A DNA stretch of 64,000 nt from Nemertoderma westbladi (GCA_032718475.1 JAUCBJ010008272.1:33280-97279), one strand, 5' to 3'. Positions 1,261-51,683 are shown, counted from the first letter of the stretch. Notes: generated by a model not told the origin, from the letters alone. Numbers and translations: made by a program.

Positions 1261-4200
1261 CTAAAATATAGCAGGGCTGTAACTCCTGGGTGAAGGGTGC
1301 AATACAATTGCATCAGAAGGTTTAGGATTACGATCGGTGTATCCGCCGGTCGAGGTACCTGGTTGATCGATATCAACTTCAGTGGATCGAGGTCTAACGG
1401 CCTTTAGGGCGCGTCTTAGGACAGCAGCTCCTACTGGTCCCTGACGAGTCGTCTGGACAATAGCGGTAGGTGGACCGTGAGTGGTGAGAAACTTCCTCGG
1501 TTTAATGGTTCTTTCCAGCTCGCATTCTCGGGCTTGATATTCGTAGGGCCGTCGAGATACTTCCTGTAACTCAGGGTGCGAGTTGATAAATAAATCTCCA
1601 TACTCAGGGTCTTGACGGATGAAATTGATCAAATGGTATGAATTAATATCGTTAGGATTGACGTTCCTGAGATATTTTCGAACAAATTTGGTGGAAATAC
1701 ACTCACCAACACGCTTCATTAGTTCGTAACTCGGTGTGCGTGTTTTTTGTTCAACAGACGCGAATAGATAAGGATGGAACGCGTAAACTCCCTCGTAGGC
1801 GCGTCCAGGGTAATAGCGATGGCGTGACTCACAATGCAAATCCGCGTTCGCTTCCCAAGCTCGGATGTAGCGCAGGGTAATCATCTCATCTACGCTTTCC
1901 AGATCGCGGTTAAAAGGGCAATTAAAACTGGCATGTCCTTTAAGTTGACAGTGGTGGCATTGAGTCATAAATTGGGGGCAGACTGCAAAAATGTGCGAGT
2001 TATTGAGTCTGCAATACGCACAATAGATCTCCATCATCGGTTGTTCGTGGAAATAGGAGCAGGGTACGTCTGAGTCCATAGGGGTGAAATGATCTCTCGA
2101 TGCGCATAATCGGCAACGTTTTCGAGAAACATAGTTGGCGTGCCGATAATCGAATGCGGTGAGACATTGTGGACCTTGATACCATTCCAAGACGTAGTCG
2201 TTATCGCTGCTCCGGGGCGCTGTAGGCTGAATCTCCTCAGATTCCAAGCATATTGGTTCGTCTTCCAATTGCATAGCTGAGATAGGTGCGGCTGTCTCCG
2301 CAAGCGAACCCACTGTCTGAACTTCCACGACAGAATAACCCGTGGGTATTCGAGGTCTTTGTATAACAGATGAATGTAAGTTCTGTATACAAACGTCCTT
2401 GAAAAGGGCGAATCCCGCGCTGTCTAACTTCTCTGCAGCTGAGTCTCTTAGGCTGAGTTTGGTCAGAGCGCGGTCCTTGAACTGACTATCAACGTTACGG
2501 AATGGAGTCAGAAAGCGCCTGAAACATTCGAAGCGGATGAATTTATTGTGTTCATCTAGCTTGGCGAGTTTAGTTCCAAGTATTAAGGGATGGGCGCGTA
2601 TGGTACGACTGCACACATCGGCTAGCCAACCGGCAAGTGCGGCGTTTTCAAAGATCGTGTAGATAGCTAAGGAGGGACGGAGTGGAACACTCATGAAGCT
2701 ATACACGGCGTCAGGTGCGGTCAATGGTCCATCAAAGTATAATCGAGAATAATGGTCTCCGTATACTTGTTGATAGTTGATGGGATTTCCGACTTTGAAA
2801 TTCCATCCGTATTCTTGAAAGGCAAGATGTCCGATGGAGGTTCGTTGTACTTTAGTAATGCCGCTGGGTGTATTTGCATACATAGCGCGGAAGAAACCTC
2901 GGCCTTCTGCCCAGGGAGCAATCAGCTGAGTATCGACGAAAGGGTATGGAATGTTCTCCATGTTCCGAAAGTCGTTTTGTAGATCTCCATAAACAGCTGA
3001 GCCGATTTTAAGGATTCTTTCGTTAAACAACATCTCGAGCACGGGCTGGGGTAACATCGATCCATCGATACCCATGGCCGGTTTGCGCTCGGTGTCGGTG
3101 ACGTAACGCTGCGCGAGTTCGAATTGTCCATGTCGGAGTTTCTTTTGTATCTCGGTAAGGGTCTCAAAAGAATAATCAATCACATCGGAACACGCTCGAG
3201 TAAATACGTGGGTAGAACCAGCTAGTCCTCGTATATGTATCATTCGCGTAGTTCCCAGTTCTCCAACCGGAACGCTACCTTCGTTATCGTAAGTGACAAC
3301 TCCATACATCTCGATAACGTTAAGAGTCTCATTCCACTCTTTAGTGGCGTTTTCTAGAGTCATTCCCACTGGATGCCACAAGGTGGCGCATTCGCTAGCA
3401 TTAGGTAGATCTCTATACTTCAAATACTGTGTAGTATATGTTTCTACATCTCCATATCATTGTATTCTTTCCTCCTCGAATAACACGTCGATATTCCAGT
3501 GGACTAATCGAGTTTTGATAAATCCATCAAGATTATACGGAGGTATTGTATCTTTCTCTATTCTTGAAACATTATAGGGTTTTCGGAATGAGTTTACTTT
3601 CACTAACTGATCCAGATGTTTCTGCAGTTGTTCGAGTTCGACAAGATCGAGAGGATTTATTAGTGGTAGAAACCTCAGACTATGTGTAGGATCTTCCAGT
3701 TTTACCATGTAATATTGCGTTAGATTGACGTAATAAGGGTGATCTTTGATCCCATAAAACGAGTTCGGTAAAGGTCTAGCGCGTATGTTAACATTGTGTA
3801 CCATACGACGGACAAGATCCGCTCTATTGTCCGGAGGTTCAACAAGTAAACCATCGACACGAGCGGCCTCGATTGGCGGACGTTGCAACATGGGAGCGTC
3901 AGCGATGAGATCTCGAGATCTTAGGTTGATATCAACCGGTTGAGGTTGTGCCGTGGCGAAGAGTTTGTCTCCAAAATGGGGAACCATCGAAGGATGGATG
4001 ATGGTTTTAGAATAGAGATCCGTCAAAAGAATTTGAGCTTCTGGCTGGGCCAAAGCTGCTTCTTCTCTCTCATCCATTTCTATGTGTTTCTCCTCGAGCT
4101 GATTTTCCTCCGCTTGTTGTTGTAAACGCTCGTCTAGGAACTCTTGTAAAGAGTAGGTTCGTCCACGTTCGATGTCTTCCTCGAGATTCTGGATTTCTCT

Positions 4201-5439
4201 ATCGAACTGGGGTAAGGCTAATTCTTTCACCGCTTGGACTTGTTGCTGCAATTTGCGTTTCTCTAAACAATCGTAAGTTCCTTTTCCGATTTTCTGCCGA
4301 ATAGCGTCTAACGCGTTTCGTACAACGCTCTCTTCGACTTCGGTAACGGGTTGTATCGGTGTTAAGCCTGGACGGTTGTACGGGTTAAACGGCGATATTA
4401 GATGACCGCGTCCTAATCCGGCTAGGTAGGGTTGTCGAATATCTAGTGCGCCCACTACCGTAGTGCCACCGATTAATTGTTCGGGTAACACAAGATCTTT
4501 AAATAGTGAGTACAGTTCAGGGGGATCCGTTATACTATTAGGATCAAGCGTTTGAGGTCTCACTGAGGAATGAGGAGGTCTGACCGAGTATTCCGGAACT
4601 CTGATCATTGGTTTATTTAAGGATCGTTTGAGTCGAGCGAGCGTAGGTGATACGTAGAACAGGTTTCGCTCGAAACTCCCATAAGTATATCGTGTAAAAC
4701 AGTGTTTAGCGCAATGTCTCCGCGGATGTTTATGTCTTTTCGTTTGCTGATTGGGTCTAGAGCATTCGTCGCAGTAATACCAAAGACGCACGTCCTGCAG
4801 GGGAAACGCGGGTGATCGTTCTCCAGTTTTACAATATTCCTCCATCTGTTCGAAGCTATCTGGGATGACAGGTAGCGGTCGATCGGCGGTAAGATACATC
4901 ATAGTGAAATAGAGTCGTTTGAGTTCTATCATAGGGTCATGATGTATACCTTGAGGATATCGAGTTTCTAGATTTTGTTGACTGTCAATATTGAGATATG
5001 TTTCTCTCAGGAATTCCAGATAATCGTTGAAGTTGCTGCATTTATCCGGCTCTTCAACGTCTTCCCTTTCGAGTCTGTTTCGAATAGAATTCTCATGTTC
5101 TATTCTCGGTTTATCGTTCCGACTCCGCTGGGTATGATATTTAAATAAAACCATTTCCCTTTCGGTGTCTACATCGTCCGTATCGTGTAAATCGATAGGA
5201 TGGCCAGTAGTTAAGAAGTCCATATACGTACCATTACGATGCGTATAGCGAGCGGTGAATTTTCTATAGTCCAATTCACGCGTAAGTTGCTCCTGGGACA
5301 TTGGCGGTTCGATATAACGACCATCGTCCTCCGTAGTAGTTGGACCAGCGTCGCCGCGTATCAAGCTATCAACAAACGCTTGTAAAGGTAGAGTATATCG
5401 CTCCCTGATACCAAGATCATCTTCTATCAACTCAGTCAT
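1261..5439 (-). CDS. Accessory ORF of the BEL element (~1392 aa reconstructed; one in-frame TGA at 3457-3459): Zn motif, helical region, DEDDy-like 3'-5' exonuclease, three CCHC fingers
   Basis: ORFs 3457-5439 and 1261-3423 are in the same frame, and copy 2 reads through the junction (EERIQ-R-YGDE). Exonuclease-like motifs: VVTYDNEG, LPQPVLEMLFNERILKIGSAVYGD, FVDTQ, SIGHLAFQEYG, PLRPSLAIYTIFE. Knuckles: CRLC-x4-H-x9-C, CAYC-x5-H-x4-C, CHHC-x4-H-x4-C. Confidence 0.8.
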
Positions 5440-7076
5440 ATCTGCTATATGAGTTTATCAATATTATAATGAGTTTATATTTAGGCTAGCGGGCGTCGCT
5501 GCCTACCCCTCTCTGCCACCGGACAGTGCAAGATCCTCAGCGCCAATGTACCGTCGTCGCTGTGTTTTCGCCAATGTAGTAGCTACACAACGACAACGAT
5601 AACCGGCACAAGTCACTCCACTGTCCGTCCCAAAGGCTTAGATTTACTTCAGGTTCTTGCTGCAGAGTTAGGGCTACTTTCACAATTGCGACTCGCTACT
5701 GTAAACACACTTTAGTAGTAACATTCACCTATAAACGCACAAATTCCACACAACTGTCACAAATTGTACACATTCGGGCCATTTGTCCGTTAGTCAAGTG
5801 CCTTCCAGAATGCCACGTTATTATTATGTATCCTTGGATACTAGCAGTGTGCTATTTCTTCCCTATGCTATTCAATGGGGTAAGCTTTCTATTGTTCTTT
5901 TAACTCACTTCTAATTCTAGCGTGGTTGTTGCTATGGTGACATTATGGAAAGCTAGCGGTAGAATTAGGGTAATTCTCATGCATACAGATCTGGGATGCT
6001 ATTTAATAGTAATTCTTTAATTGTCAATATCCCCTTTATACATGATTTTATGAATTTTATCGGCTATTGACTATATATTGGAGATTCTCGCACACTAATA
6101 CACTTAATAGGGTGAATCTCCGCTCCCATGATCTATTAATTAATGGAATTTTGGGAATGTTATAAATTGTATAAAAATTACAATTTATCAAATTCATTAA
6201 AATATGAATTTAAATTTATTCCCGTAAATTTTATTATTTAATATTAAATAGACACAATTTTATTCCAGAACATGTTTGGGGACTAGGATCCTGAATTCTA
6301 AGAAATATGTCCTTTTAAGAGTATCGGTAAGTGCTACGATATCTTAATAGACTAGAATTTTAAAGGATCTAAATTTTGACAGATTTTGTAAATATTAATA
6401 ATTAATATTTAGGTTGGGCACCAGTTTATTCCAGAAGTTATCTGGGGACGTTAACCACTGATTCTAGAATTTTGTCTTTCAAGTATATCGGTGGGTGCCG
6501 CGATATCTTAATCGACTAGAATTACAGATGGTCAAAAGGTTTAACAGATTTATTTTGCGTTTTACGCTACTGTTAAAGGGACATCACGCTACTATATGTA
6601 TTATTTAATATACGGTATGAGAGCAATATCGCACGAAGCAATGTCAGTGAGAAGAGGCAAGTCGTTTCCAAGGTCTACCCAGAGCTTGGTTTAGCCGAGA
6701 CACGGGGATCTGAATTTTGCATTCCTAATACTCTACTTACCAATAATACTTGAATATAGTAGGAGCTTTATTGTACTTTAATAAGTACGGATATTTCATC
6801 TTACTGTAGTCACGTATTTATAATGTAATACGGACAGTAAGGAAAGAGAAAAATAATTATCTCTCGCCGTCGCACTAAATATATAATATATAAGTAATTA
6901 AGTAATAAACACTAATATATATTGCACTAATCTACTAAATAATCGCTAAAATAACATTCTACTAAATAAAATTAAAGAAAACGATTATAATAAAATTACA
7001 TAATAATACATACATAAATATAAAATAATAAAAACAAATATAAAATAATATAGTCACACACCCACTCCAGACGCTG

Positions 7077-8507
7077 TTACGTTGGGGAGTCCCTAGATGT
7101 TTGTTGGATTAGGGAGGTGGTCTTGGGAAGAGTATCTTGCCTTCCATAGTTTCCGGAGAGTTCTCTGTCTCTTTCCAGTAAACATAAACGACCAACTGGG
7201 CGATTGAGCTGCTGTGTCTCGAAGACAATTCCCGGTTTCTTAAAGTTACGTCGCATGACGACGAGTTCTACCGATTGCACTAAACCATCATCCGAGATGT
7301 GAGTCTCGATGATACGACCACAATAAGGACCATGTCTCCAACGCTGACGTTTTCTTGTTGCGCAAACCACTTAGTTCGAAGTTGTAGCGTGGGCAGATAA
7401 TGTTTTTCGAAATGGTCAGCGAAACGATGGGATAACAACTGCATAAGTTGCCAAGTTTGCTGGCAGTATCCGTCTCCGTCTGTGATTTCCGATCGTGGGA
7501 GCATGGCTACAGGTTTCTTCAGTAGGAAGTGCGCGGGTGTTAGCGCTTCCAGGGAATCGGGACTCGATGAGACTGGCATAAGCGGTCTCTCGTTGAGATA
7601 GGCGGCGATTTCCTCCATTAACGTCCGCAAAAGTTCATCGGTGAGATACGCGCGGCACGGCACTATAAAGTGAAATGCGGTCTTCACGCTCCTGATTAAT
7701 CTCTCCCAACTTCCTCCCCACCAAGGGGCGTCGGCAGCGTTGAAGGTCCAGCTAGACGCTGTTACCCTTAGCTGATCGTCCACCTGTCTTTGGTTCCAAT
7801 CTTTGACGTAAGCCTTGATTTCATTGTTGGCACCAATGAAGTTTGTTCCCTTATCAGATCTCATCGTGTTACTAGTTCCAAAGCGAGCGATCTGTCGTCG
7901 TAAGCTCAATAGGAAGCTGTTGGTAGATAAATCGTTCACCATATCGAGATGGATAGCTCTACAAGTCATACAAACAAAGATGACACACCATCTCTTGACT
8001 ATAGTCCTAGCACGATATACTTCAATAGGGCCAAATAAATCTACACCGGTATTAGTAAAGGGTGGTTCATAGAAGCTTACTCGTTCCCTAGGTAATTCTG
8101 CCTCTCGCTGTGTTAAAGGCCTACTGAATGCTTTCCTACAGGGTATGCAGTTCCTAAGAACTTGGTTCAGAGCTCTACGGGGTTTATAAAAATAATAGCG
8201 AGTTCGAATTTCGCTAAGAACTCGTTCTCTGCCAGCATGATAAAGTTTGCTGTGAACATCTACAATCATCTTGATTTATATTTCAAGATTTCTAATGAGT
8301 ATGGGAAACTTAGTGTCAAAGGATAATGGAGCATTAGTTAACCTTCCCCCAACACGTATTAACCCATCTATCATTGTGCTAGAGAAACGATCCCTTAAGC
8401 GCATCCTGTGGATTTCTCAACAACAGGAAATACTTATCGGAATCCTCATAGCATTGCAGGAGTCTCAGCATCTGCTTATTGGTTTCTTCATGCTCCTGAT
8501 AACTGAT
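7077..8507 (-). pseudogene. Integrase and C-terminal part of Pol, disrupted
   Basis: HHCC (H..H..CIPC), GVDLFGP, SDKGTNF, GGSWERLIRSVK. Relative to copy 2 there is a 1-bp insertion near 8405 (ccacaGgatgcgc) and a ~34-bp deletion near 7318. Confidence 0.9.
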
Positions 8508-11500
8508 CTACTCCTTCAGAAACCTGTCGGATATCTTATATTTGAGAAGATCTTTAACAACATGGACCTGCACAGATGTCAGTAGAGCGGTATCACTATT
8601 GGTCATCGTCCTGGAGTAGTGATGATGAAAACATCGCTTTAAATATGTAACGGCCTTACAGAGCCGATTCCAGGAACTGTAGTGATATATCGCTCTCTGC
8701 AGGAGAGGTGAGAGTCCTTGCGAGACGTCTGGTATTCCAGATTTCCAATCCTTCTCTCTGATTTCCACAACAGACTTATTTGTGGCTGTGGGTTTCGGAT
8801 CCAAAGCGTCGTCTCCGGAAGTGTGTAGTACAGACAGATCTACCACGGGTTTAAATAACTTCGATTTACTCGCCCGAGTTTTAGGTTTGACTTTCTCCGC
8901 TCCCTTGGCCTGTCTAATCTCCGCTGTAGTAAGATGAGGAGGCCATTCTTCCTCTTCTTTGCTTAGGAAGTCGGGTCCACCTAACCAGTCTGGAGTATCT
9001 ATCAGTTCTTGTGGAGTTGCTCCCCTGGAGGCGATGTCTGCTGGATTAATCGTTCCGGGGCAATGTCTCCATTGATCCATCTTCGTACGACTAAGTATAA
9101 TGGCTACTCTTTTGGTAACGAAGACGCTGAACTGACAGACTTCATTGGTTATATACTCCAACACGAGTAGAGCATCGGTCCAATAGACAGTTTTCTCCAG
9201 TGGATATTCGATCTGTTCTGTTACATTTCGGCCGATGGTTGTAGCGTATAAAGCTGCCTTTAACTCCGCTCGAGGGACTTTCAACTTGTTGTTTATCAAT
9301 GCCTTAGAGGTAACCAAAGCGACTTTGATTCCATCCGGAGTTTCAACTCTCAGGTAGGCTACTATACCTATTCCGATATCGCTGGCGTCTCCAAACACAT
9401 GGAGTTGATAGGAATACGTAGGGAGAACATGACCAAAATATGAACGGGAAATTATAAAGTTCTCGATGGCTGGTAGAGAATCTTCCCATTTCATCCACTT
9501 CTTTAATAGTTCTCCCTTAAGTGGATCGTCCCATGAGTGGTTTTCAAGCCACATTTGTTGTACTAAACTCCGAGCAATCAATATAACTGGGCTAATAAAT
9601 CCCAATGGATCGAAATAAGTGCTCAGGATACTTAAACAAATCCGTTTAGTCCGAACTGGATTATCTCGCTGTTTGAGCTGAAATAACAGGATATCTCTCT
9701 CTGTGTCCCATTTCAAACCAAGTGTTTTGGTTTCTGGAAGATCGTCTTTCATTAGGTCTAGATCTTTCGCTCCTCGATCTTCTACCGGGATCGATTCCAG
9801 AAACTCACGGGAGTTGCTGGTGAATTTAGTTAATCGAAATCCACCTCTTTTTAAGCACTCTACCGTTCCTTTGGCGACATCAATGGCTTCTTCCACCGAT
9901 GGAAGGGACTTTAAATTGTCGTCCATGTATATATCCCGTTTGATGTTGTCGATCACCTCTTTTGAGAAGGCGTCCCGGTTGTCATCAGCAGTGGTGCGCA
10001 CCACTGAGCAGGCGTTTGAAGGGCTTGAGATGATCCCAAAGGCCTGGATGGTCATCCAATACTCCACCAGTTTCTGGTTGAGGTCTCCTTCCGGCCACCA
10101 CAGAAATCGTAGGCTATCTCGATCCCTATCCAGCGCCTTGACTTGTAAGAACATGCCATCTATATCGGAGGCGAAAGCGATCGAATATTGTCGTAATCTT
10201 AAGAGTATTCCCAACAAGGATTGGAGTAAGTTGGGTCCTGGTAACAACTCGGAATTAAGGGATTGGCCCATGTAGAGGGCGGAGCCGTCAAATACTACCC
10301 TTACTTCATGGGGTTTACCGGGTTTGGGAACGTAATGATGTGTTAAATAGTACGTTCTCTCAGTTATAGGTGTTTCTTCCGGTACTCGCTCCGCATATCC
10401 CTTGTTAATAAATTTCTTCAACTGAGTCTGATACATTTCTTTAGCTGAAGCATTTGCCGTGAGGCGTCGATGTAGTTGAGCAATTCTTTTCTCCGCCAAG
10501 GGTCGGTTGTTTATGAATTTTGGTTCTCGCTTTCGGAATGTTAGACCGATTTCATATCTACCTTGATCTTTAAGAAAACATGTAGTTGTCTCCTGGATCT
10601 GCTTGGCTCTTTCTTCTTCTACCGATAGGGTCTTATCGTAGGAATTGGGCTCTACAGCCTCTTGAGTAAAGAATCGTACGGCGTGTTCATCCCGAGTCTT
10701 CGCGTTATAGCGCTCGATTACGTCATTCAGTTCGTCGTTATAGTCGACTTGTCCTGATGGACGAATGAGTTGACATAGGTTCACTTGGTTTTGCCAAGTC
10801 TCGTTTTCCGTAAGGAGATCGATGGTATTCTCCTCGTCGAAGAGTTGGTGGATATCGTCATTATCTGAGGAGTATGGTGTTCCCTCAGTTGGGTCATCTA
10901 CCTCACTGCTCTCCACTTCCCATTCACTTACTTGATATACCTGTTCTTTTGGTAACCTTTCCATGAGAGTTCTACGGGAAGGGCCAGTAAAGTACCAACC
11001 CACTCTAGTTCTTCCCGCATAGGCTTGTAGTGGTTGCGGTTGAGCAGGCCGTTTCTCCAATGTCTCAAGCGCCTCATGCGCATTTTGGCCGATGAGTATT
11101 TGTACTCCAGGGTAATCTGTGTTGAATCTAGGTATATTAAGCCGCTGGGTGAAATCGTCCTCATCCCAGTTATAAGGTTCTACTTGGCTGGTAGCGAAGT
11201 TCTTTATCGCCACCATTTTTACTGACCTTATGCTGTATTCTCCTAGTTCATCCTGGGGGGTGGACAACGCACCTACATAATAATCCGCTATTACTGTAGA
11301 TTTCCAAACCTGCATAATTCCTGACATGTTTAACTTAGTTCGGAATTTGGGTTGTCCAGCAAAGATGTCTTCAGCTAGTTCTTTGTCGATGAATGTTCCT
11401 GTGCTACCGGAGTCAAGGAGGGCGTTCACTATATAACTCCTTTCAGGTCTGTGGACCCTCAACTGCACTACGGGAAATTCTCGGATTCCTACATTGGAAG

Positions 11501-14500
11501 TTGTTGCTTTCCAAGATGGTTGTCGGTCAGAAGCAGTTAGGGGGAGCTCGCTGTCGGTGTCCTTTTCATACGTAAGTGCTCGATACACTGCGGTATTTAT
11601 CTGGTAACAGGATTCGTTTTCGTCGGAGAATTCGTCTGTATAGAATCCTTCCATCTCAGAACTTTGGTCAGTGTCATTCACACCACTGAATTGGACATGT
11701 AGTTCGGACTCACTTACCTGACTCGGGCTGTTTCGCTCGAATTCAGTGTGCAACAAGATATGATGTTTCGCACCGCACTTTGCACACCTTGCGTCGGAGT
11801 AACAGGTTCGCCGTTGGTGTCCTTGTCTGAGGCAATTATAACACAACCGCTTATCCCACATGACTTCACGTCTATCCTTTAATGATTTCTTTAGGAATTC
11901 ATCACACACATTCAAACGGTGGGGCCCGTCACACAGCGCACATTTCGGTTTGATGTTACTTACCTTATTTTGAGTAACGTTGTGTACACTCGTTCTTTCT
12001 TCGGGCTTTCTTACATGAATTCTCTTAGGAGACGTAGGAGGAGTTTTTCTTACCTGTTCTCTCCTGTCATTGGTTCGAGACTTGAATTTACTTACGTCTT
12101 TAGGCGTTTTGTTGACATAATAAGATCTTTCAGTGTCTTTCCCGCTGTCTTCTTCTTGAGAAGCCTGGCTTTCGCCGTCGTCGGTATAACACACTGGTGT
12201 TACCTTTCTCCTAGAAACGGGTTTCTCACTTACCTTGTTTTCCGGTGTCTTCTCTCTGGACTGCTTTAGGAGCTGTAATTTCACTTCTCCATCTAAGAAT
12301 GACATGAGATCAGCCATGGTAGGGTCTCGTCGTTGTTGTTCCATCATATATAACACTTTCTTATCCCAGCGTGTACCTACTCCACCCTTCGGTAAAGTAG
12401 AGGCCACGGCTCCAATAACCATAGAACTCTGATATTCATGAGACTTACCTAGCCAATCTAATTGTCTACAGATCTCCTGAATCTCATCGGAAAACTCTAT
12501 AATCCCGCTGCTAATGAACTTTCGGGGGGCTACCAATTTTGCATACAAATACCTAGCTATGTTATTCCTATTACCATACCTGATGTTTAGGTTATCCCAA
12601 ACTTGTCTTAGTCCATCTGGATGTCCAATAAACTTTAACGCCATTAACTTGGGAGATCCTTCCAAGCACTCGATGAGGAATCTAAGTTTCTCTCCGTTAG
12701 ATAACACAGAGTTCTGTATGTTATCCTTGTAATATTCATTAAAAGGTAACCATTTCATCTCATCTCCATTAAACTTGACGATCTCTCCCACCTTTACCGC
12801 TTGACGGGCTTCGGTTCTAGCCATTTGACGCGTAAAACTTTCTTGGGCCATCGTATTATTTAATATCGAGTTATCAGTATATAAATTTCTCGGATTATGA
12901 TCAGGTCTATATGGAATATCATTGTCAACAGGTTTATAATTACCCTTAATAGGGTTTACTATAGGAGTTTCTACTTCACTAGCAGTATAGATGCGTGTAG
13001 GCTCCACACCTTGCGCATGAAATACTTCAGACCTAACAGGTTGACACATTGTTACCGGGGTTGGTGGTATACCCTTTTGTATATTTACTAATTTATCACG
13101 TTCTAACGCGATATTCTGCTGCACTTCTTGCAACTCTAACCTACTTTCCCTTGCTGTTCCCTTGAACTGCTGAACAGTTCCTTCCATCTCCCGGACCTGC
13201 TGAGAGGAGCACTGGCGGTGTTCCCTCAGCTGCCCGAGCAGGAGACCCATCTCCCGTCGTCCCTCAGCTACCCACTCGACCGCTGAAGCGGGAGTCACCA
13301 ACGTAGTAGCGGGCGAGCGAGAGACGACGGGCGATAAATTCTTGATCTCTCGCTCGGCGTCCAGGACGGGTTCGGACTCGGGAACAGTCCTACAGGGCAC
13401 AGGTAGTTTAGTACTGTGCAAAGGGAATTTAGAGGTAGGTTCTGGGAGTACAGGTGTCTCTATCACCGAAGGGGTGGCTTCGAGAACAGGCCTAATTATT
13501 TCAGGCTCATCTACTATAGTAGGGAGTCTTTCTATTTTAATTATTTGGTCTGTGGGTTCTGTACTACCTAAGTCTGTGTTAGTTAGTTGCCTTCTAACAG
13601 CTGGGGGTAAATTAGGCAATTTCTGACGGTGGGACATTCTTCTACGTCTGCTTAGATGAGATCTATTTCCTCCGCCTTCAGGATCGGTGGTATCGCCTTC
13701 ATCAGATGATGTATATCCCTGTCTTTTGGGAGTAGATCGACTCATCATCTGCATTTGACTAGCTGTTAACTGTTTATTTATGCGGTCTTGATTCTCTTGA
13801 ATATTTTCCAACTCTAGTTGGGTGGTCTCTTCAGATGCTCTTCGTTCTGCTTCTGCCACGGCTCGCTTTCTTTCCGCTTCTGCCTCTGCTGCTGCCGCTG
13901 CTGCTATCTTTCTGTCTTCTATACGTTTTTTCTTTACTTGTTCTTCTTGGACTCTAGCGATGCGGAGGTGTTCATCAAATTTAGCTTGGTTCGCAGCTAT
14001 CATATCCGCATCGATTGCGTCCAACACAAGCATGGCTCCTTCACTATTAGGGCGAAGTCCAGACAGCCGTCTCCTCAACTCTTCGTCACCTACAAATCGT
14101 TGATAGTCTGACAGATAGATGTCAATAGCATCCCTCTTATGAGGTTTTTCTGCTGTCACTTCACTTTCCACTTGGGAAAAGGTAGCATCTGTTGATTCTC
14201 CATGGGTTGAGCGCTCAGCCAACTGAGATTTCCACGGGGCAGTTCTTTGAACTTTGAGACTCACCCGCTGAAACCAAGTCTTTACGGCAACTTGCAACGA
14301 CGTGTCTTGTCTTCTTTTCGAAGCCTCCTCAAAGGCCGATAAGATTAGTCTGATTCTTAGAATTCTTTCTCTAACTTGATAAAGCAGCTCTCCCTGCTCT
14401 TGAGGTCCTTGGGGTTGTCGAAACAGTTGTTCCTCTAATCGCTCCATAGAGCTGAAGAATCCCTGTACGTATCCTGCTGCCAACCTCTTCCACACAGCTG

Positions 14501-15083
14501 GATCGCTGGTTTCTTTTGCCACTCCCATCCTGTGTATGTCCTCCCAGGCAGCTTCCGATAAGTCAAACGGGAGTCCGGGTCCGGGGAAGTTCCATTGCGA
14601 CTCGACAATAGACTTCAGTTCTTCCCTTGTGTATCCCGCATAACTATCCTTGGTCGATCGCTTACTTCTCGCCCAATCAATCTGGTGTTCCTCCACCGCA
14701 ATCAATACCCTAGTGAGAATGTCTGCAGGAAGTATGAGAAGGGGATCCGAATAAACCGCATCTGCCATCTTTGCTCCGCGCTCGGGTGTCAGCTCTACAG
14801 TATCCGCACTACTGGAGCTGTCGGGCCTTTGAGAAATAAGTTCTCGGCTCGAGTGTTGCTGCTGTTCCGCTGCTTCTTGGTCTCGCTTGACTTGAGCTCG
14901 AGTGCCTATGATAGACCTACGGTGTTGGACTAGCCTAGGGTCTGATACTACTACTGGAGGGATGATCTTTCTTACAGTAGGAGGTGAGTTGAACTTCGGT
15001 CTCACACGTTCCACACTCCTGTCTGGGTCACAGATGGTTGTATCTAGGAGACTGTCTGACAGGTTTTGCTTCGTTTCAGACAT
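8508..15083 (-). CDS. BEL/Pao Gag-Pol polyprotein (Gag, protease, RT, RNase H), ended by a premature TAG
   Basis: DUF1759-like KFNGDEMKWLPF; triple Cys/His knuckle CALCDGPH..C / CYNCLRQGHQRRTC / CAKCGAKHHILLH; protease LLDSGS; RT YMDD; RNase H LHVFGDAS. The TAG at 8508-8510 aligns with AAG in copy 2. Confidence 0.95.
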   Translation of the reverse strand: MSETKQNLSDSLLDTTICDPDRSVERVRPKFNSPPTVRKIIPPVVVSDPRLVQHRRSIIGTRAQVKRDQEAAEQQQHSSRELISQRPDSSSSADTVELTPERGAKMADAVYSDPLLILPADILTRVLIAVEEHQIDWARSKRSTKDSYAGYTREELKSIVESQWNFPGPGLPFDLSEAAWEDIHRMGVAKETSDPAVWKRLAAGYVQGFFSSMERLEEQLFRQPQGPQEQGELLYQVRERILRIRLILSAFEEASKRRQDTSLQVAVKTWFQRVSLKVQRTAPWKSQLAERSTHGESTDATFSQVESEVTAEKPHKRDAIDIYLSDYQRFVGDEELRRRLSGLRPNSEGAMLVLDAIDADMIAANQAKFDEHLRIARVQEEQVKKKRIEDRKIAAAAAAEAEAERKRAVAEAERRASEETTQLELENIQENQDRINKQLTASQMQMMSRSTPKRQGYTSSDEGDTTDPEGGGNRSHLSRRRRMSHRQKLPNLPPAVRRQLTNTDLGSTEPTDQIIKIERLPTIVDEPEIIRPVLEATPSVIETPVLPEPTSKFPLHSTKLPVPCRTVPESEPVLDAEREIKNLSPVVSRSPATTLVTPASAVEWVAEGRREMGLLLGQLREHRQCSSQQVREMEGTVQQFKGTARESRLELQEVQQNIALERDKLVNIQKGIPPTPVTMCQPVRSEVFHAQGVEPTRIYTASEVETPIVNPIKGNYKPVDNDIPYRPDHNPRNLYTDNSILNNTMAQESFTRQMARTEARQAVKVGEIVKFNGDEMKWLPFNEYYKDNIQNSVLSNGEKLRFLIECLEGSPKLMALKFIGHPDGLRQVWDNLNIRYGNRNNIARYLYAKLVAPRKFISSGIIEFSDEIQEICRQLDWLGKSHEYQSSMVIGAVASTLPKGGVGTRWDKKVLYMMEQQRRDPTMADLMSFLDGEVKLQLLKQSREKTPENKVSEKPVSRRKVTPVCYTDDGESQASQEEDSGKDTERSYYVNKTPKDVSKFKSRTNDRREQVRKTPPTSPKRIHVRKPEERTSVHNVTQNKVSNIKPKCALCDGPHRLNVCDEFLKKSLKDRREVMWDKRLCYNCLRQGHQRRTCYSDARCAKCGAKHHILLHTEFERNSPSQVSESELHVQFSGVNDTDQSSEMEGFYTDEFSDENESCYQINTAVYRALTYEKDTDSELPLTASDRQPSWKATTSNVGIREFPVVQLRVHRPERSYIVNALLDSGSTGTFIDKELAEDIFAGQPKFRTKLNMSGIMQVWKSTVIADYYVGALSTPQDELGEYSIRSVKMVAIKNFATSQVEPYNWDEDDFTQRLNIPRFNTDYPGVQILIGQNAHEALETLEKRPAQPQPLQAYAGRTRVGWYFTGPSRRTLMERLPKEQVYQVSEWEVESSEVDDPTEGTPYSSDNDDIHQLFDEENTIDLLTENETWQNQVNLCQLIRPSGQVDYNDELNDVIERYNAKTRDEHAVRFFTQEAVEPNSYDKTLSVEEERAKQIQETTTCFLKDQGRYEIGLTFRKREPKFINNRPLAEKRIAQLHRRLTANASAKEMYQTQLKKFINKGYAERVPEETPITERTYYLTHHYVPKPGKPHEVRVVFDGSALYMGQSLNSELLPGPNLLQSLLGILLRLRQYSIAFASDIDGMFLQVKALDRDRDSLRFLWWPEGDLNQKLVEYWMTIQAFGIISSPSNACSVVRTTADDNRDAFSKEVIDNIKRDIYMDDNLKSLPSVEEAIDVAKGTVECLKRGGFRLTKFTSNSREFLESIPVEDRGAKDLDLMKDDLPETKTLGLKWDTERDILLFQLKQRDNPVRTKRICLSILSTYFDPLGFISPVILIARSLVQQMWLENHSWDDPLKGELLKKWMKWEDSLPAIENFIISRSYFGHVLPTYSYQLHVFGDASDIGIGIVAYLRVETPDGIKVALVTSKALINNKLKVPRAELKAALYATTIGRNVTEQIEYPLEKTVYWTDALLVLEYITNEVCQFSVFVTKRVAIILSRTKMDQWRHCPGTINPADIASRGATPQELIDTPDWLGGPDFLSKEEEEWPPHLTTAEIRQAKGAEKVKPKTRASKSKLFKPVVDLSVLHTSGDDALDPKPTATNKSVVEIREKDWKSGIPDVSQGLSPLLQRAIYHYSSWNRLCKAVTYLKRCFHHHYSRTMTNSDTALLTSVQVHVVKDLLKYKISDRFLKE

Positions 15084-15219
15084 GTTTGTTTGTACAGTTG
15101 AATGCCTACTGCTATATTACAGTTAAAGCAAGTCTAGTAATTCAGTATCAACTGTTAGCCTAGTAATTAATTACCGATACTGTTACTCAGTGTAACGTGA
15201 TATATATATATAATATATT

Positions 15220-15595
15220 AGAATACCGGTATGCTTATAGTATATATATAAGTATTATTACAGACTAGGTTTGTCACAGAATACCGGTATATAATTTCAG
15301 CGCAAATATATATAAATATATAATAGGCCTATCGTGAATACTGGTATACAGCTTACACTTATAGTATATATAAGTATAATTATTACAGACTAGGTTTGTC
15401 ACAGAATACCGGTATAATTTCAGCCTAAATTTATAAATATAGAATAGGCCTATCGTGAATACCGGTATGCAGCTTACACTTATAGTATATATAAGTATAA
15501 TTATGGACTAGAATTAATTACAGAATACCGGTATAATATCAGCCTAAATTTATAGAAATAAATATAATGAGCCTATCGTAAATACCGGTATGTCA
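15220..15595. repeat. ~3 diverged ~120-bp tandem units in the BEL 5' leader
   Basis: Recurring tattacagactaggtttgtcacagaataccggtat / ggcctatcgtgaatac(c/t)ggtat blocks. Confidence 0.7.
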
Positions 15596-17117
15596 ATTAT
15601 TTTAGAATAATTGAATTTCTGAATTTTAGGAGTTACTTGGTTACTTTACTTTACTTGATTGCCGTTATTTAAGCAGTAGTCCAACTGACATTAAGACCTA
15701 ATTGTTGTAAGACAGGCCTACTATTTTATAAATCAGTTTGAGTTGATTTATAATATATATATACCCGTATAATGGGTTTTGTCAATATTTGAAATAAATG
15801 TTATTATTTCTGGGAAGGAGTCACTGCACAGAAGCTGTACGCTCTCAGTGAAGTGCTACTTGTTGGACACTAAAACAAATAATTCTAATTTGCCTAAGTT
15901 ACTTAATACTACAAATTACGTACAATTCGGGGTGAGATTACAATCTCTAAATAAACACAAAAATTACACGTACGAATTTTTAGGGTAATTTCACAAGAAG
16001 TCTACAAACCAGCCTAACAAAGGGTTAGAATATCTGGTTATTACAAACAGGCAGGATTCTACGGTATTTGAAAATAACAAAGCAGTAGTAAATATACTGC
16101 GTTGTCCAGATAGGAAAAATACCACCGTCTGACGACTTATAGCCGTATCGCTATAAGTACTACGTTATGTATCATGGAGTGTTCCTACCTAGAAGTTAAT
16201 TACCGCGGCCTACCAGAGCCAACGTGCCTATTAACCACTTTACAACACAAATATACTGCCTACACACTAATTACCTTCGGAAAGCACTGTACACTAAACC
16301 CTAAATTAGGTACAAGTACTTATACAACAAATAATCAGCAGTTAAAAATACTTATACAGCTAAAAGAACCACGGTATCTGCTGGAGTGATCAAAGCATAT
16401 AATCTCCAGTCTTTACCTACGCCAAACAGCCCTGATGTAGTACCGGGGTTAATTTAACTATAACGGTATGTATAACAAGCACAATTACTGTAGGAATAAA
16501 CTTGGGGGTATGAATGTTGCGAATAATCGCATAAACTCTGAATAATAAATATTACGCTACCCTTACAGACTATACAAAACAAAATACAGACCAAACGCTG
16601 GCAGACCACTATCAAGCCTAAATAAACCACAGTATATGCAGACTCAGAAATGGTTAGTTAGTATGCGTTCTAACCGAGTAGTACGACTTATTCTTTCAGG
16701 GGGATTTACCTTACAGCACTGGATGTCACCCACTTTCCTAACTAGTACTTTAGCGGAGATACACTCTACACACACTGTAATCTCCTCAGACTTAACTACA
16801 GTCAGACAACAGTCCAGCCTACAAATTACCTGTACAATCTGAGCAGGCTTACACGTCTTCTGCTCAACATCAACTTACAGATAAATAAAACTGACAGAAA
16901 TAAGTAAAATCTCAATAAAAAACCAGGGCGGCCGTCCCTGATTAAATATCAAGACCTACCGGTATATAATTATCAAAATCGAATAATACTGCTGTACCTG
17001 TACTGCTGTAAGTACCGGTCCGGGTGGTTAGGAAGTCAGGCCTACCAGTTACCGGTCGACCGGTACTTTAGACTGTATTTATTGCCTACACTGCAATCAG
17101 AACTCAATAACTGTTAT

Positions 17118-18292
17118 TGTTCGCGCTTTCAGACCTTTAGCAGTTTAACCTGCCAAATTTAGATGTCTTCTAGATTATAAATCGACTTTAGCCTATGACG
17201 AGTATTTGATACACTACATTAGCCGAAGCCAGTCTATGCGCGACCATTCACCCGCTGGATATACCCGGGAGACTGGATTCGGAAGCTTTGACCTTATTGC
17301 GGTGTAGGCCTACTGTATTATTCGACTGATTGTTAATATATAATTTCTGACAAATATTATTCACTTTCGGGAAATATCAACAGTTCCTTTAGGACGTGGC
17401 ACTCTAAATATGTAAACAGAGTTATGACTTACACTAAACACAATGGGATGGCTATTGATTCACGTATAAAGCGCATTCTTTAGGAGATGCTTTGTTATCA
17501 GTCACAATCATGCACACTACCGCACAATGCTACACACCGATCTGCCGACCTTCACTAATTTTAGTCACATATAAAGAGAACAGCAACCGACACATGTAGT
17601 GCCTATGAAATAGCATTAGATTCACTCCAAAACCACTTTAATGTAAGTCGCAATTGTTATATGTAACCGGTCTCTTAACTTCAGTATATCAAGAAGATTG
17701 GGGTTTTATGATTATTTATCGATATTATCCAAATATAACAATATTCCATCCACTGATATAATTAATAACAGACAGTAAATAGCAGTAAAAATGTGGTGTG
17801 GTATATGAACACACTGACTTGCGTGAGTTGATATGATTAGGTGAGATAGGATAACAGTTATACGTTTCTATGATCAAGCCTACTAATGTTTGGCTAAAGC
17901 CTGAAACACAGAAATTCCAAAGCCGGTCTTCTGGCATCAGGAAAAATACACACACTGACTGAATTGCATGAGTTTCTGTATACAATCTCCAACACAGAGT
18001 GAAAACCGCTCTGATTGGTCGACCGAACAAAGAACGAACAAAGAACAAAGAAAAAGTTACATGTGGACACAGCTGATAGATGTCGTCATCTGAGTTCCGA
18101 TGTTTAGAGTATTTGGCTTATTGCGACATAAAATCGCTAGTTATGTCCGCTAAAGTACACATACAGAAGAAATGGCTTTTTATGTCCACTAAAACACCGG
18201 TACAGTAAGGAAACGGCTTTTTATGTCCGTTAAAACAACTACAGAGTACTTTGCGGGGAAAATAATCAGCTAATTCCGCAAAAGCCTTTACA
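17118..18292 (-). repeat. 5' LTR of BEL copy 1 (~1175 bp)
   Basis: Minus strand begins TGTAAAGGCTTTTGCGGA and ends GCGCGAACA, matching the termini of the other two LTRs; CCAATCAGAGC box shared by all three. Confidence 0.85.
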
Positions 18293-18377: not shown

Positions 18378-19879
18378 TTGATTTCTGGTCTGTCGGACAG
18401 TTGGTTTCACTATGCCTGTGCCAAAACAACATTCAAAATTCCATGATTTATAGACTATGAGATAGATTTTCATATGCGCCTGTCAGCCTGTGGTAAAAGA
18501 CTCTAAATTTAATAGTTTGTGGTTGTTGTCGATAATCGATTACCACACTCATTTAGCAATAAAACAGAGGCGGGCCTTTCTAACAAAACAATAAACGGCC
18601 ACTTTACCAAATCAGGGAAAGGAGCAGGTTTACAGAGGCGGGCCTTTCTAACCAAAACAATAAACGGTCACTTTACCAATTCAGGGAAAGGTGCAGGTTT
18701 ACAGAGGTGGACAGACCAATTGCTACAAACTGCTTTGCATAATACGTTTCTGATTGGTCTGTCCGTTGTCCATTTTCTGTGTCCAGTCCACCTTTTTCAA
18801 ACACCCGTTTCTCTCTACTGCTGTTCTCTCAGGACTCAGGCTATCAGTACCGGTATTAGTATAGGCCTATAGAGCACTATTTTGTAGTATTGCTATTGTA
18901 TGTACAGATGTAGGTATAAAGCAGGTATTTTAGCACCGGTTCCGCCACCGGTACTGCTGTAGGCCTATTGTGTAGCCTACCATTTAAATACGGTAATGCA
19001 AGGCCTACCGGCTGACCGGTTGTTTTGGTCAGAAAATCCCGCCTCTGTAACCTGCTCCTTTATTTCAATTGGTAATGTTATCGTTTATTGTTTTGGCTAG
19101 AAAAGACCATCTATGTAACCTGCTCCTTTCCTTCATTTGGTAAATTGATTGTTTATTGTTTTGGTTAGAAAATCCGGCCTTAACCTGCTCCTTTCCCTGA
19201 TTTGGTGAAGTGACCGTTTATTATTTTGGTTAGAAAGGCTAACCTCTGTAACCTGCTCCTTTCCTTCATTTTGTGAAGTGACTGTTTATTGTTTTGGTTA
19301 GAAATTCCCGCCTCTGTAACCTGCCGCCTTTCCCTCAATTAGTTAAGTGATCGTTTATTGTTTTGGTTAGGAAATCCCGCCTCTGTAACCTGCTCCTTTC
19401 CCTGATTTGGTAAAGTGACTGTTTATTGTTTTGGTTAGAAAATCTCGTCTCTGTAACCTGCTCCTTTCCCTGATTTGGTAAAGTGACTGTTTATTGTTTT
19501 GGTTAGAAAATCCCGCCTCTGTAACCCGCTCCTTTCCCTCAATTAGTTAAATGATCGTTTATTGTTTTGGTTAGAAAGGCCCGCCTCTATAACCGGCTCC
19601 TTTCCTTCATTTGGTAAAGTGACTGTTTATTGTTTTGGTTAGAACATCCGGCCTTAACCTGCTCCTTTCCATCAATTGGTAATTGTTTTTGGCTATAAAA
19701 TGAGTGTTTTGCTACGTCATGTGGTAATCGATTATCGACAACAACCACAAACTATTAAATTTAGAGTCTTTTACAACAGGCGCATATGGAAATCTATCTC
19801 ATAGTCTATAAATCATGGAATCATGGAATGTTTTGGCACATGCATAGTGAAATCAACTGTCCGACAGACCAGAAATCAA
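18378..19879. mobile_element. Foldback-type non-autonomous element: ~170-bp TIRs plus internal 68-bp tandem repeats in opposite orientation in each arm
   Basis: ttgatttctggtctgtcggacag...gataatcgattaccaca (left) is the reverse complement of tgtggtaatcgattatc...ctgtccgacagaccagaaatcaa (right); ~2 units at 18565-18710 and ~10 inverted units at 19020-19690. Confidence 0.8.
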
Positions 19880-21027: not shown

Positions 21028-21780
21028 TTAAATGATTTGTAGATTATTGGTTGTGGTTTGTGTTTGGCTGGTTTTGATGCAATACATCGATATTCCCCGG
21101 CATATCAAAGAAACTCCGACAATAAAACCTCCAATCCAAACGGCAGTAACACCACCGGAAGCAGACTTGACGTTTGCTATGGTAAATGCAGTGGCGACGA
21201 GTAGAAACAGAAATCCCACAGTAACGTAAATAGCGCCTCTGTTGCGCGCAAAGTCACCCACAGACGAGACGCGACCGCACTTGGGACACTTGGACAGACT
21301 GCTCTTCTTATAACACACAAACGTGTCGCCGCAATGCCCACATATCGCGGTAACTCGGTTGGGACAGGCTTCCGTGCTTGAGATTGTTCCTCCAGCGAGC
21401 GTGATTATCCGCTTACATCGCGGGCGCGGACACGACACTTGGTTGCTCTGTAGCCTACAGATTAGCAGATTGTTGCACAGACACCGAATATACCTCCTAC
21501 CACTAGGGGGCGCTTTCACCGCTGACGACTCACCACAATGACCGCATTTAACCACCGTATGTTTGGACTTCCCCTTCAGACTGACTGGAGACATGCATAC
21601 ATTGCACTCTATGTTGGGAGTGGCTGTCTGGTCCAGACTGTAGGCGGGGGGTTTGACTTCTTCGAAGGACAACGGTACGGAGGACTCGGGGGCTGTAGGT
21701 GTGGTAAAATCATCTTGGATATTGGAGTAGTAGGATGGCAAGTCCGGTTCAACCAAACGGTCGCTGTCTTTAGTTGTCAT
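21028..21780 (-). CDS. TMEM55: TMEM55/PIP4P-family protein, 250 aa, single exon
   Basis: PPAY motif; CxxC pairs CNVC, CGHC; APPSGRRYIRCLCNNLLIC...CPRPRCKRII; two C-terminal TM helices; ATG at 21780 (MTTKDSD). Confidence 0.9.
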   Translation of the reverse strand: MTTKDSDRLVEPDLPSYYSNIQDDFTTPTAPESSVPLSFEEVKPPAYSLDQTATPNIECNVCMSPVSLKGKSKHTVVKCGHCGESSAVKAPPSGRRYIRCLCNNLLICRLQSNQVSCPRPRCKRIITLAGGTISSTEACPNRVTAICGHCGDTFVCYKKSSLSKCPKCGRVSSVGDFARNRGAIYVTVGFLFLLVATAFTIANVKSASGGVTAVWIGGFIVGVSLICRGISMYCIKTSQTQTTTNNLQII

Positions 21781-21792
21781 GACGATATATGT

Positions 21793-21865
21793 AATAATAA
21801 TAATAATAATGCATTTGTATAGCGCCAAATTTACAACAACAGAAGTACGCTAAGGCGCTTACGTC
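21793..21865 (-). mobile_element. 3' tail of an L2-type LINE or L2-dependent SINE
   Basis: Minus strand gtaagcgccttagcg...ggcgctatacaaatgcatt(att)n, a stem-loop followed by an (ATT)n tail. Confidence 0.55.
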
Positions 21866-22043
21866 ACAAGCAATATAACATTAAAACTAGCAGTGCAAGT
21901 AGTACAGAAATTAAAAATTATAGTCGTCACTAACGATAAAACGTGCAGATCAAAATGACTAAAGGTTATTACAATCGTTAAAAAGTGGAACATACAGTAC
22001 AAATTGATATATACACTCTACTACAGTATATACTATATATATG

Positions 22044-23855
22044 TACTATACTATACTATACTATACTATACTATACTATACTATACTATACTATACTATA
22101 CTATACTATACTATACTATACTATACTATACTATACTATACTATACTATACTATACTATACTATACTATACTATACTATACTATACTATACTATACTATA
22201 CTATACTATACTATACTATACTATACTATACTATACTATACTATACTATACTATACTATACTATACTATACTATACTATACTATACTATACTATACTATA
22301 CTATACTATACTATACTATACTATATACTATACTATACTATACTATACTATACTATACTATACTATACTATACTATACTATACTAACTATACTATACTAT
22401 ACTATACTATACTATACTATACTATACTATACTATACTATACTATACTATACTATACTATACTATACTATACTATACTATACTATACTATACTATACTAT
22501 ACTATACTATACTATACTATACTATACTATACTATACTATACTATACTATACTATACTATACTATACTATACTATACTATACTATACTATACTATACTAT
22601 ACTACTACTATACTATACTATACTATACTATACTATACTATACTATACTATACTATACTATACTATACTATACTATACTATACTATACTATACTATACTA
22701 TACTATACTATACTATACTATACTATACTATACTATACTATACTATACTATACTATACTATACTATACTATACTATACTATACTATACTATACTATACTA
22801 TACTATACTATACTATACTATACTATACTATACTATACTATACTATACTATACTATACTATACTATACTATACTATACTATACTATACTATACTATACTA
22901 TACTATACTATACTATACTATACTATACTATACTATACTATACTATACTATACTATACTATACTATACTATACTATACTATACTATACTATACTATACTA
23001 TACTATACTATACTATACTATACTATACTATACTATACTATACTATACTATACTATACTATACTATACTATACTATACTATACTATACTATACTATACTA
23101 TACTATACTATACTATACTATACTATACTATACTATACTATACTATACTATACTATACTATACTATACTATACTATACTATACTATACTATACTATACTA
23201 TACTATACTATACTATACTATACTATACTATACTATACTATACTATACTATACTATACTATACTATACTATACTATACTATACTATACTATACTATACTA
23301 TACTATACTATACTATACTATACTATACTATACTATACTATACTATACTATACTATACTATACTATACTATACTATACTATACTATACTATACTATACTA
23401 TACTATACTATACTATACTATACTATACTATACTATACTATACTATACTATACTATACTATACTATACTATACTATACTATACTATACTATACTATACTA
23501 TACTATACTATACTATACTATACTATACTATACTATACTATACTATACTATACTATACTATACTATACTATACTATACTATACTATACTATACTATACTA
23601 TACTATACTATACTATACTATACTATACTATACTATACTATACTATACTATACTATACTATACTATACTATACTATACTATACTATACTATACTATACTA
23701 TACTATACTATACTATACTATACTATACTATACTATACTATACTATACTATACTATACTATACTATACTATACTATACTATACTATACTATACTATACTA
23801 TACTATACTATACTATACTATACTATACTATACTATACTATACTATACTATACTA
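22044..23855. repeat. (ATACT)n pentanucleotide microsatellite, ~1.8 kb
   Basis: Directly visible; only about three interruptions. Confidence 0.99.
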
Positions 23856-24705
23856 GAAACTAATAATTAAAGTGGAAACGGACAAATTTGTTATGGAAAA
23901 TTGGTTATTACTGTATATATTCTGGATAATAATTCATAAAGAGAATGTACTGTGGGGCGAGCCACGCAGTCAGGGCGAGCCTTAGCGCACAATTACAGTA
24001 TAAATAGTCTGCCTGTCTGTCTGTCTGAATTTTGTATGGGCGTACTAGAGAAAAAGTTTCAATATTTTGAAAGTTATGGGCAAATATACCTCTTGAACCT
24101 TTATCTCCAGATCAAATCGAACTTGTTTCGAACTTACTCAAGTTCGAGTGCTGCGCAACGCCCCACGAACGTGTATTTTATATTTACTTACGATAGCATA
24201 TAGATGTAATTTTCTTATTGTCACCTTTCCACATCTCGTTTAGTGGTTCACTAAACGAAATAAACTTCATTTAAACAATAATTGTGATTTATAATTATAA
24301 CTGCGCAATATATAGTTTATGTTTTACATATTTAAATAAGTAAGATAATAAGTAAGATAATAAGTAAGATACGTAGGGATCTATAGAACTGTAGATTCTA
24401 AAAAATACCCTAAATAACTCTATTTAATAATGCACCGATAATAACACTATTATTTTTCTAATACTAACATTATTTTATGTGTACAAATTTAAGACAACTC
24501 TGTCCTTTCAAATAACAACAGGTCATGACTACAACTGAAAAGTACGAAAACGTAAAGTACAGTATATACAGTGTATATCTTTATCTCTCGGCGGGATATA
24601 AATATCGTACTACTACTGTACAGTACATTAACATTACGGCTTACATGATTAGGCTACATTCGGTACGACTTGTGTTAATCCATTTAAATTGTTACACAAT
24701 TAACA

Positions 24706-27377: not shown

Positions 27378-27796
27378 ATAGAGTAGGCCCTATTGAGGGT
27401 CTTTTGCTGGTTATAATAAATTAATTAAAGATACAATAAGTAAACGTTTTCGACCTACCGGTCTGCATCAGACTACTACAGTACTATAGCAACTAACAGG
27501 AGAAGTAGAGGGTCTATATAGATATATCATGTTTAAGGGGGGATACCTGATAAGTAAATCCAAGAAAAAGTAACGTGTTTATACATAGAAATGTATTGTA
27601 CAGTAGGCCTATAATTATGTTAGGTAAATTCCACAGGGTTATAATATGTATATATCTAAAGTACAAATACAGTATAAGGTTGAATTGGCAATACCTGATA
27701 AGGTAAATCCCATTTAAGGTAACGTGTTTATATAATGTACTGTATGGTATAATTATGTTAGAGACGGCGCCAAGACGCCGTTAAGCAAGTCGTAAG

Positions 27797-51540: not shown

Positions 51541-51683
51541 TCACACTTTTATTAAATGATTTTAGTAATATCGAAAAATAAATAAATTTGGAACTAAAGA
51601 CGATGAGGTAAGGCACATTATTTCATTTTAAACTACAAACATAATGTATTAACATGGCAGACCTACACAACGTGTGTATAGTA

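Follow-up and report, generated by a model that had tools for sequence, protein, structure and literature searches.

A constrained third gene with a putative DEDDy-type exonuclease domain in a BEL/Pao retrotransposon family of Nemertoderma westbladi

The 64,000-nucleotide stretch of Nemertoderma westbladi DNA analysed here (GCA_032718475.1, JAUCBJ010008272.1:33280-97279; hereafter the window) contains two inverted copies of a BEL/Pao long terminal repeat (LTR) retrotransposon and one solo LTR. Copy 1, on the minus strand, carries beyond gag-pol a further open reading frame (ORF), termed ORF3 or the cargo. We assign a probability of roughly 0.6 to the reading that this cargo is a third gene of the BEL/Pao family, held under constraint like that of pol, and probably codes for a DEDDy-type 3'-5' exonuclease that binds RNA and would benefit the element, most likely against host silencing. 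The parts of the cargo in copy 1 are as follows.

1269-5439, minus strand: ORF3 cargo, one gene of at least about 1,390 codons, start ATG common to both copies, truncated at about 1269 (common loose ends of contigs at 1269-1273).
3460-5439, minus strand: N-terminal 660 amino acids, with a Cys/His cluster (4773-4699) and a segment that is charged and looks helical; matches no family; omega 0.13.
3457-3459, minus strand: in-frame stop, confined or almost confined to copy 1.
2600-3330, minus strand: likely DEDDy 3'-5' exonuclease domain, with ExoI D/E at 3288/3282, ExoII D at 2985, ExoIII YxxxE at 2661-2647 and an insertion of about 29 amino acids after ExoI (profile comparison; ExoIII register set by eye through the relative P0002).
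1780-2115, minus strand: Cys/His module of one atypical and two CCHC-type knuckles, followed by a conserved motif common to the relatives P0002 and P0003 (alignments A1 and A5).

A single cargo gene, constrained by purifying selection as pol is

The in-frame stop at 3459-3457 (minus strand) separates two stop-to-stop frames of 665 and 731 amino acids (5439-3460 and 3456-1264), which the initial annotation had taken for a single gene interrupted by a TGA lesion. At the homologous site of copy 2, near 44733, the codon is a sense codon, as that annotation had stated. Contigs of four out of seven sequencing runs were compared, among which X3 and X4 derive from other samples and studies, X1 is possibly the window's own sample and X5 carries another organism label. 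Sense codons at position 3459 account for 99.8% of the summed contig depth in X1 (26 contigs), 99.5% in X3 (13), 100% in X4 (4) and 100% in X5 (2); contig depth does not equal copy number, but these shares show that the stop, with 0-0.5% of the depth in all four runs, is clearly rare. The stop is thus a lesion of copy 1, and the cargo is one gene. Two separate proteins, or a programmed readthrough of the stop, are barely credible: the relatives P0002 and P0003 start roughly where the C-terminal half starts, so that this half stands alone elsewhere, but against this are set the sense codons of all four runs, the open frame of copy 2 at this site and three further breaks in the pol of copy 1. 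Release of the C-terminal half by proteolysis or splicing is possible.

The gene had been placed at 3424-4560, and while its unity stood, this extent did not, since the frame reaches far beyond on both sides and, counted from its ATG (5439), extends over about 1,390 codons. The end that it seems to have at 1261 is an artefact of truncation, because contigs of three of the four runs leave copy 1 at 1269-1273 and diverge into a common different sequence (32 contigs in X1, 14 in X3 and 2 in X5).

Selection was estimated from the two window copies and from variant tables. The 20-codon block that had suggested purifying selection (4501-4560 versus 43634-43693) contains exactly the counts first reported, 13 synonymous and 1 non-synonymous difference, with 6 identical codons; it is a local peak, the gene-wide mean proportion of synonymous differences (pS) being 0.45, and the conclusion drawn from it holds gene-wide. 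By the Nei-Gojobori method, 977 cargo codons give a synonymous divergence (dS) of 0.69, a non-synonymous divergence (dN) of 0.069 and a dN/dS of 0.100 (bootstrap 0.078-0.129), which is far from 1 and equals the values of reverse transcriptase-RNase H (RT-RNaseH; 0.091, 514 codons), integrase (0.102, 330 codons) and gagB-protease (gagB-PR; 0.100, 444 codons), that of gagA being 0.272 (413 codons). Differences fall 104/56/294 over the three codon positions, all seven sub-windows lie at dN/dS 0.05-0.24, and the other five frames of the cargo show dN/dS of 0.23-3.2 with 42-64 stops. A GY94 fit, from which blocks of less than 30 bases were dropped, yielded a cargo omega of 0.110 (968 codons; 2dlnL 404 against omega=1), with 0.128 and 0.080 for the two halves, and 0.111 for RT-RNaseH, 0.112 for integrase, 0.113 for gagB-PR and 0.271 for gagA. 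The pairwise estimate covers the cargo up to its last 390 or so codons, which have no partner in copy 2, and the omega values of the cargo are likely overstated because decay after insertion adds neutral changes. The cargo is under the same purifying selection as pol, in both halves.

The variant tables point the same way. They are represented by 33 cargo rows among 40 of 1,597 listed variant rows, chosen by the tool, in which variants segregating in the family at intermediate frequency occupy the third codon position in 15 of 20 cases and variants nearly private to copy 1 in 1 of 13 (Fisher p 2e-4). This pattern fits selection on active lineages followed by the decay of copy 1. The pairwise test cannot assign selection to each branch; a dN/dS of about 0.10, however, leaves room for neutral evolution over no more than roughly a tenth of the path that separates the copies, and part of this is taken up by the decay of copy 2. 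From this limit, the proposal that the cargo was functional in both active sublineages, and was no passively carried host DNA, is reasonable.

ORF3 is not Env, because no 19-residue window rises above a hydropathy of 1.26 in 1,397 residues and a strongly hydrophobic segment is therefore absent. Fusogens gave no match in Pfam or the PDB, and no membrane anchor was found in the available ORF3, whose true C-terminus is missing. An envelope protein, or a passively captured host gene, is accordingly a very improbable explanation, even though ORF3 lies in the position of env (PMC8742986), animal genes may be too sparsely represented in the protein libraries searched, and a host paralogue is thinkable as its source. 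Both forms of it run against the data: omega equals that of pol over a dS of about 0.7, ORF3 is intronless and colinear in both copies, and the lack of a hydrophobic segment extends over all residues at hand, though the true C-terminus is not among them.

A putative exonuclease domain and zinc knuckles in the C-terminal half

The C-terminal half of ORF3 very probably holds a divergent 3'-5' exonuclease fold of the DEDDy (RNase D/WRN) type, as judged by profile comparison. The reference set was drawn from bacterial PF01612 domains of 30 genomes, 28 of the 39 extracted domains being kept by a motif and length filter. A three-member profile (alignment A4) matched these 28 RNase D/PolA-type domains at 74% in HHalign (E 2.8e-5), a score that none of 100 column shuffles reached (best 1.4%). 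The same comparison puts the ExoI D-x-E (3288, 3282) and the ExoII D (2985) in register with the references. ExoIII reads Y-x3-E (2661-2647) in both copies and in P0002, where the usual motif is Y-x3-D, in a register set by eye. Among 18,950 NCBIfam entries the sole two matches were both RNase D (E 0.004 and 0.024), and 25 of 30 matches in the ESM Atlas fell in a PF01612 set (0.92). Alignments A2, A3 and A5 give a different ExoI register; preference was given to A1 and A4, which are likewise obtained with MAFFT and agree with the strand after ExoI.

Several observations weigh against this assignment. HHalign did not place ExoIII by itself, both NCBIfam matches lie far under the cut-off, and the Atlas match shares 160 features, below the 170 typical of true family members. 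The copy 1 protein alone reached 7.5% in HHalign against the references and 3.0 bits in hmmsearch, a score attained by 5 of 831 scored shuffles (2,000 made). Pfam gave no exonuclease match and the PDB no match, the residue at the first position of ExoI is not acidic in copy 2, and the exonuclease-like domain of P0003 looks degenerate. Two AlphaFold models, at predicted local distance difference test (pLDDT) values of 32 and 35, were unusable; Foldseek found no match at E <= 0.001 with these low-confidence models. Compared with cellular DEDDy exonucleases (RNase D, WRN exo, MUT-7/Nibbler, EXD1/EXD2 and RRP6), the domain has similar ExoI/ExoII spacing and residues, but is only about 13-15% identical to the bacterial references, which made up the alignment, and differs by the insertion and the E in ExoIII.

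Whether the putative domain would be catalytically active is put at even odds, because its fourth acid is E and not D. The same residue, together with the 29-amino-acid insertion, the acid missing from copy 2 and the degenerate P0003, speaks for a catalytically dead exonuclease fold acting as an adaptor that binds RNA for transport or for localisation to the nuage. Egalitarian is reportedly such a dead exonuclease-fold adaptor as well. The proteins EXD1 and Maelstrom provide the described parallels (PMC5408684). We hold this alternative to be unlikely, though worth weighing: copy 1 and P0002, though only about 28% identical to each other, have both retained D, E, D and Y...E, and the ORF3s described for rotifer LTR elements also have a D-to-E swap in the motif (PMC5408684).

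The Cys/His module is, in all likelihood, a set of nucleic-acid-binding zinc knuckles; its profile matches retroviral nucleocapsid knuckles (E 1.8e-4), and a Pfam match to zf-CCHC_3 stands at E 0.06. Two remote relatives of the C-terminal half were found among 1.84 billion representatives, P0002 (648 amino acids; E 1.9e-7) and P0003 (633 amino acids; E 1.3e-4). They share with ORF3 the order of exonuclease-like domain, linker, and Cys/His module with its conserved tail, including the same downstream motif; unlike ORF3, they lack the N-terminal half, and both are singletons. Protein homologue searches returned no further homologues for the C-terminal half, alignment A1 or the shorter P0002 relatives, searches of viral contigs and plasmids had no matches, and a metagenome scan recovered only the contig of P0003 itself. 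The N-terminal 660 residues of ORF3 had no usable match in Pfam, NCBIfam, the PDB or the ESM Atlas.

P0003 lies at 124-2025 of the 3.7-kb contig L001, where the degenerate domain is followed by two tandem knuckle modules. No pol gene is visible on this contig; about 1.35 kb of non-coding DNA follows P0003 and then the start of another frame (3384-3685), and the sequence past P0003 might be an LTR and gag.

The BEL/Pao element and its surroundings

Copy 1 runs on the minus strand from its LTR (18292-17118) through a 2-kb leader, gag-pol (15116 to about 7080) and a 1.64-kb spacer into the cargo, and measures 17.0 kb without its 3' end. Besides the cargo, the elements comprise these features.

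17118-18292, minus strand: 5' LTR of copy 1, 1,175 bp, TGT...ACA; ends set by homology to two others, the LTR of copy 2 and the solo LTR (target-site duplication present), to each of which it is about 70% identical.
15117-17117, minus strand: untranslated leader of about 2 kb past the LTR end, 82% identical to copy 2 over 15461-17116.
8508-15116, minus strand: gag-pol frame of 2,202 amino acids with DUF1759 (PF03564, E 8.5e-11), CCHC knuckles, protease DSGS, reverse transcriptase YMDD and a Peptidase_A17 region (PF05380, E 4e-36), by Pfam and motifs.
7080-8507, minus strand: remainder of pol with integrase (PF17921, E 1.5e-7) and DUF5641 (PF18701, E 5e-8), broken in copy 1 by two indels and one stop.
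5440-7079, minus strand: non-coding spacer of 1.64 kb, holding a diverged tandem duplication of about 165 bp.
32660-45727, plus strand: copy 2, with LTR (32660-33704), decayed gag-pol with an internal deletion, and decayed ORF3 from 42775 (9 frameshifting indels, 2 stops), cut at 45727 by another repeat.
27797-28741, minus strand: solo LTR of the copy 2 subfamily (96% identical), TG...CA ends, 5-bp target-site duplication.

Both copies in the window are dead, because the pol of copy 1 has two indels and a stop and the cargo of copy 2 has its nine frameshifting indels and two stops. Neither has a 3' LTR, both being 3'-truncated, and the link of ORF3 to the element is its colinear position in two copies alone. 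The LTR boundaries were set by reference to the solo LTR, which has TG...CA ends and a target-site duplication of 5 bp. Membership in BEL/Pao follows from the pol order of protease, reverse transcriptase, RNase H and integrase, from BEL-specific domains (PF05380, PF03564, PF18701 and PF17921, with DSGS and YMDD), and from LTRs that end in TG...CA, at the 5' end of both copies and solo, the solo LTR having a target-site duplication. The Belpaoviridae as described in PMC8742986 and PMC3118150 likewise have gag knuckles and this order of genes and domains (PF05380/PF03564/PF18701), as well as TG...CA-ended LTRs about 1-1.2 kb in length and a target-site duplication of 5 bp. By contrast with those elements, which measure 4.2-10 kb (PMC8742986), the present one extends over at least 17 kb without a 3' LTR, its third gene is not env-like, and no adjacent TGG primer site was seen. 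No TGG-type primer-binding site lies directly after the 5' LTR at 17117-17040 (minus strand) or 33705-33790, in two decayed copies viewed without comparison to host tRNAs; in BEL/Pao elements a tRNA-Arg/Gly primer site is expected there, and priming of the present element may be atypical.

Neither the leader, on its coding strand, nor the spacer contains an ATG-initiated ORF of 50 amino acids or more. The spacer parts common to copy 2 differ at 11-14% of sites, as against 45% at synonymous sites, and because of this conservation the spacer likely carries signals for a separate ORF3 message, such as a promoter or splice signals. Summed contig depth is greater across the spacer than across the cargo. 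A spacer origin as the 3' LTR was rejected, as it has no match to the real LTR.

The LTRs of copy 1 (17118-18292) and copy 2 (32660-33704) diverge by 30%, the leader (18%) and the pol-ORF3 spacer (11-14%) being far more conserved. The gag region (15116-12200, minus strand) has an unusually long N-terminal part, of about 780 amino acids ahead of DUF1759, that evolves faster where tested (omega 0.27). About 1.1 kb between protease and reverse transcriptase (10072-11230 versus about 38655) is missing from copy 2, as is the spacer part matching 6004-6670.

Other features share the window, and its BIR/RING IAP, TMEM55 and THAP matches indicate animal DNA. An IAP-like gene, with three BIR stretches (46603-47676, plus strand) and a RING exon (55181-55873, plus strand), starts about 0.9 kb past the truncated end of copy 2; a fragment of its RING-side exon, 74% identical, lies at 31241-31527. 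An uninterrupted TMEM55 frame (PF09788; 273 amino acids; 21028-21849, minus strand) is possibly a retrocopy or an intronless gene. A THAP-domain, P-element-like transposase occupies two frames (52145-54299, plus strand), and reverse transcriptase fragments of long interspersed elements were found at 31600-32644 and 47862-48577. There are five tandem arrays, at 22008-23855 (unit of about 5 bases), 24705-27378 (about 62), 49657-51543 (about 53), 57889-64000 (about 35/70) and 19020-19682 (about 67).

Possible role and relation to known elements

A protein that binds RNA, resembles an exonuclease and is conserved as strictly as pol must, we infer, aid transposition, and ORF3 would thus raise the transposition of its own element. 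Its message would be a separate, subgenomic one under the control of the conserved spacer. The zinc knuckles would bind RNA, the exonuclease domain would trim or sequester the host small RNAs or marked transcripts through which the element is silenced, and the N-terminal 660 residues might supply oligomerisation or localisation. Nibbler, a host DEDD protein, acts in small-RNA pathways. So do the host DEDD proteins MUT-7, EXD1 and Maelstrom (PMC5408684; PMC11347159). Counter-silencing is favoured because typical BEL/Pao elements do without a gene of this kind in their replication and because host proteins of the DEDD fold act in these pathways; a small-RNA silencing pathway as the specific target is nevertheless offered tentatively, by analogy, with the odds somewhat against it. 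Weighing against a counter-silencing role, PMC5408684 reports no clear link of DEDDy ORFs to copy number.

The same gene and fold could instead act in the replication of the element, being packaged through the knuckles and trimming the 3' end of primer, genomic RNA or complementary DNA (cDNA). The likeness of the knuckles to retroviral nucleocapsid, RNase D as the nearest profile and the absence of a canonical primer-binding site after the LTR in both copies would suit such a role. RNase D is a tRNA 3'-processing enzyme. A role in replication processing has also been proposed in PMC5408684. Typical BEL/Pao elements, however, replicate without such a gene (PMC8742986), and the primer site is missing from two decayed copies only; we consider this explanation rather unlikely. 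Counter-silencing, replication processing and a dead adaptor are close rivals.

In its boldest form, the counter-silencing reading would describe a giant (>18 kb) BEL/Pao lineage with a dedicated suppressor of silencing by PIWI-interacting or small interfering RNAs (piRNA/siRNA). An active exonuclease would be aimed by nucleocapsid-like knuckles and would come from an undescribed mobile exonuclease-plus-knuckle family, with P0002 and P0003, spread among retroelements of distant hosts, which would explain the abundance of the family. This extension is speculative and, as a whole, improbable.

The nearest known systems are the DEDDy ORF3s of the bdelloid rotifer LTR elements Juno and Vesta, found also in Athena/Terminon elements (PMC5408684) and mentioned in PMC6431247, PMC6338049 and PMC5718144. 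According to PMC5408684, exonuclease domains in retrotransposons were unreported before 2017, such ORF3s are usually separate, spliced units, and roles in 3'-end processing and silencing come into consideration. Like the cargo, the Juno/Vesta ORF3 is a non-env frame 3' of pol with an RNase D/WRN-type exonuclease domain and an altered acidic motif (DEED in the rotifers), a likeness drawn from the published description. The present case differs in its BEL/Pao carrier, in the D-E-D-E motif, in a very abundant family, and in a domain set within a protein of at least 1,390 amino acids that has an orphan N-terminal half and CCHC knuckles.

The literature searched, outside of which lay many subscription papers, Repbase, GyDB and supplements, yielded no exonuclease ORF3 in a BEL/Pao element. 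Extra genes of BEL/Pao elements appear only as env-like or unspecified in the accessible text of PMC3118150, PMC9094657, PMC13524379, PMC2774666, PMC8220671, PMC11662393 and PMC11599104. What is new here is therefore likely the combination of a probable DEDDy exonuclease domain with zinc knuckles in a BEL/Pao ORF3, DEDDy ORF3s as such being already known from rotifer LTR elements. Nematode BEL-clade Cer elements are said to have an exonuclease-like domain, a report that the literature searched did not confirm.

In PMC5408684 it is left open whether the enzymatic third genes of LTR retrotransposons serve the element; only env and GDSL ORFs were tested there, in near-identical clones, and no departure from neutrality was found. 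For the cargo, purifying selection was measured: an enzymatic third gene, as it appears to be, is constrained like reverse transcriptase over all of its aligned sequence, and this in an abundant family that belongs to a second LTR superfamily. Within the window the exonuclease-like domain is intact and hence assayable. If it does act on small RNAs, ORF3 would be a counter-defence gene owned by an animal retrotransposon.

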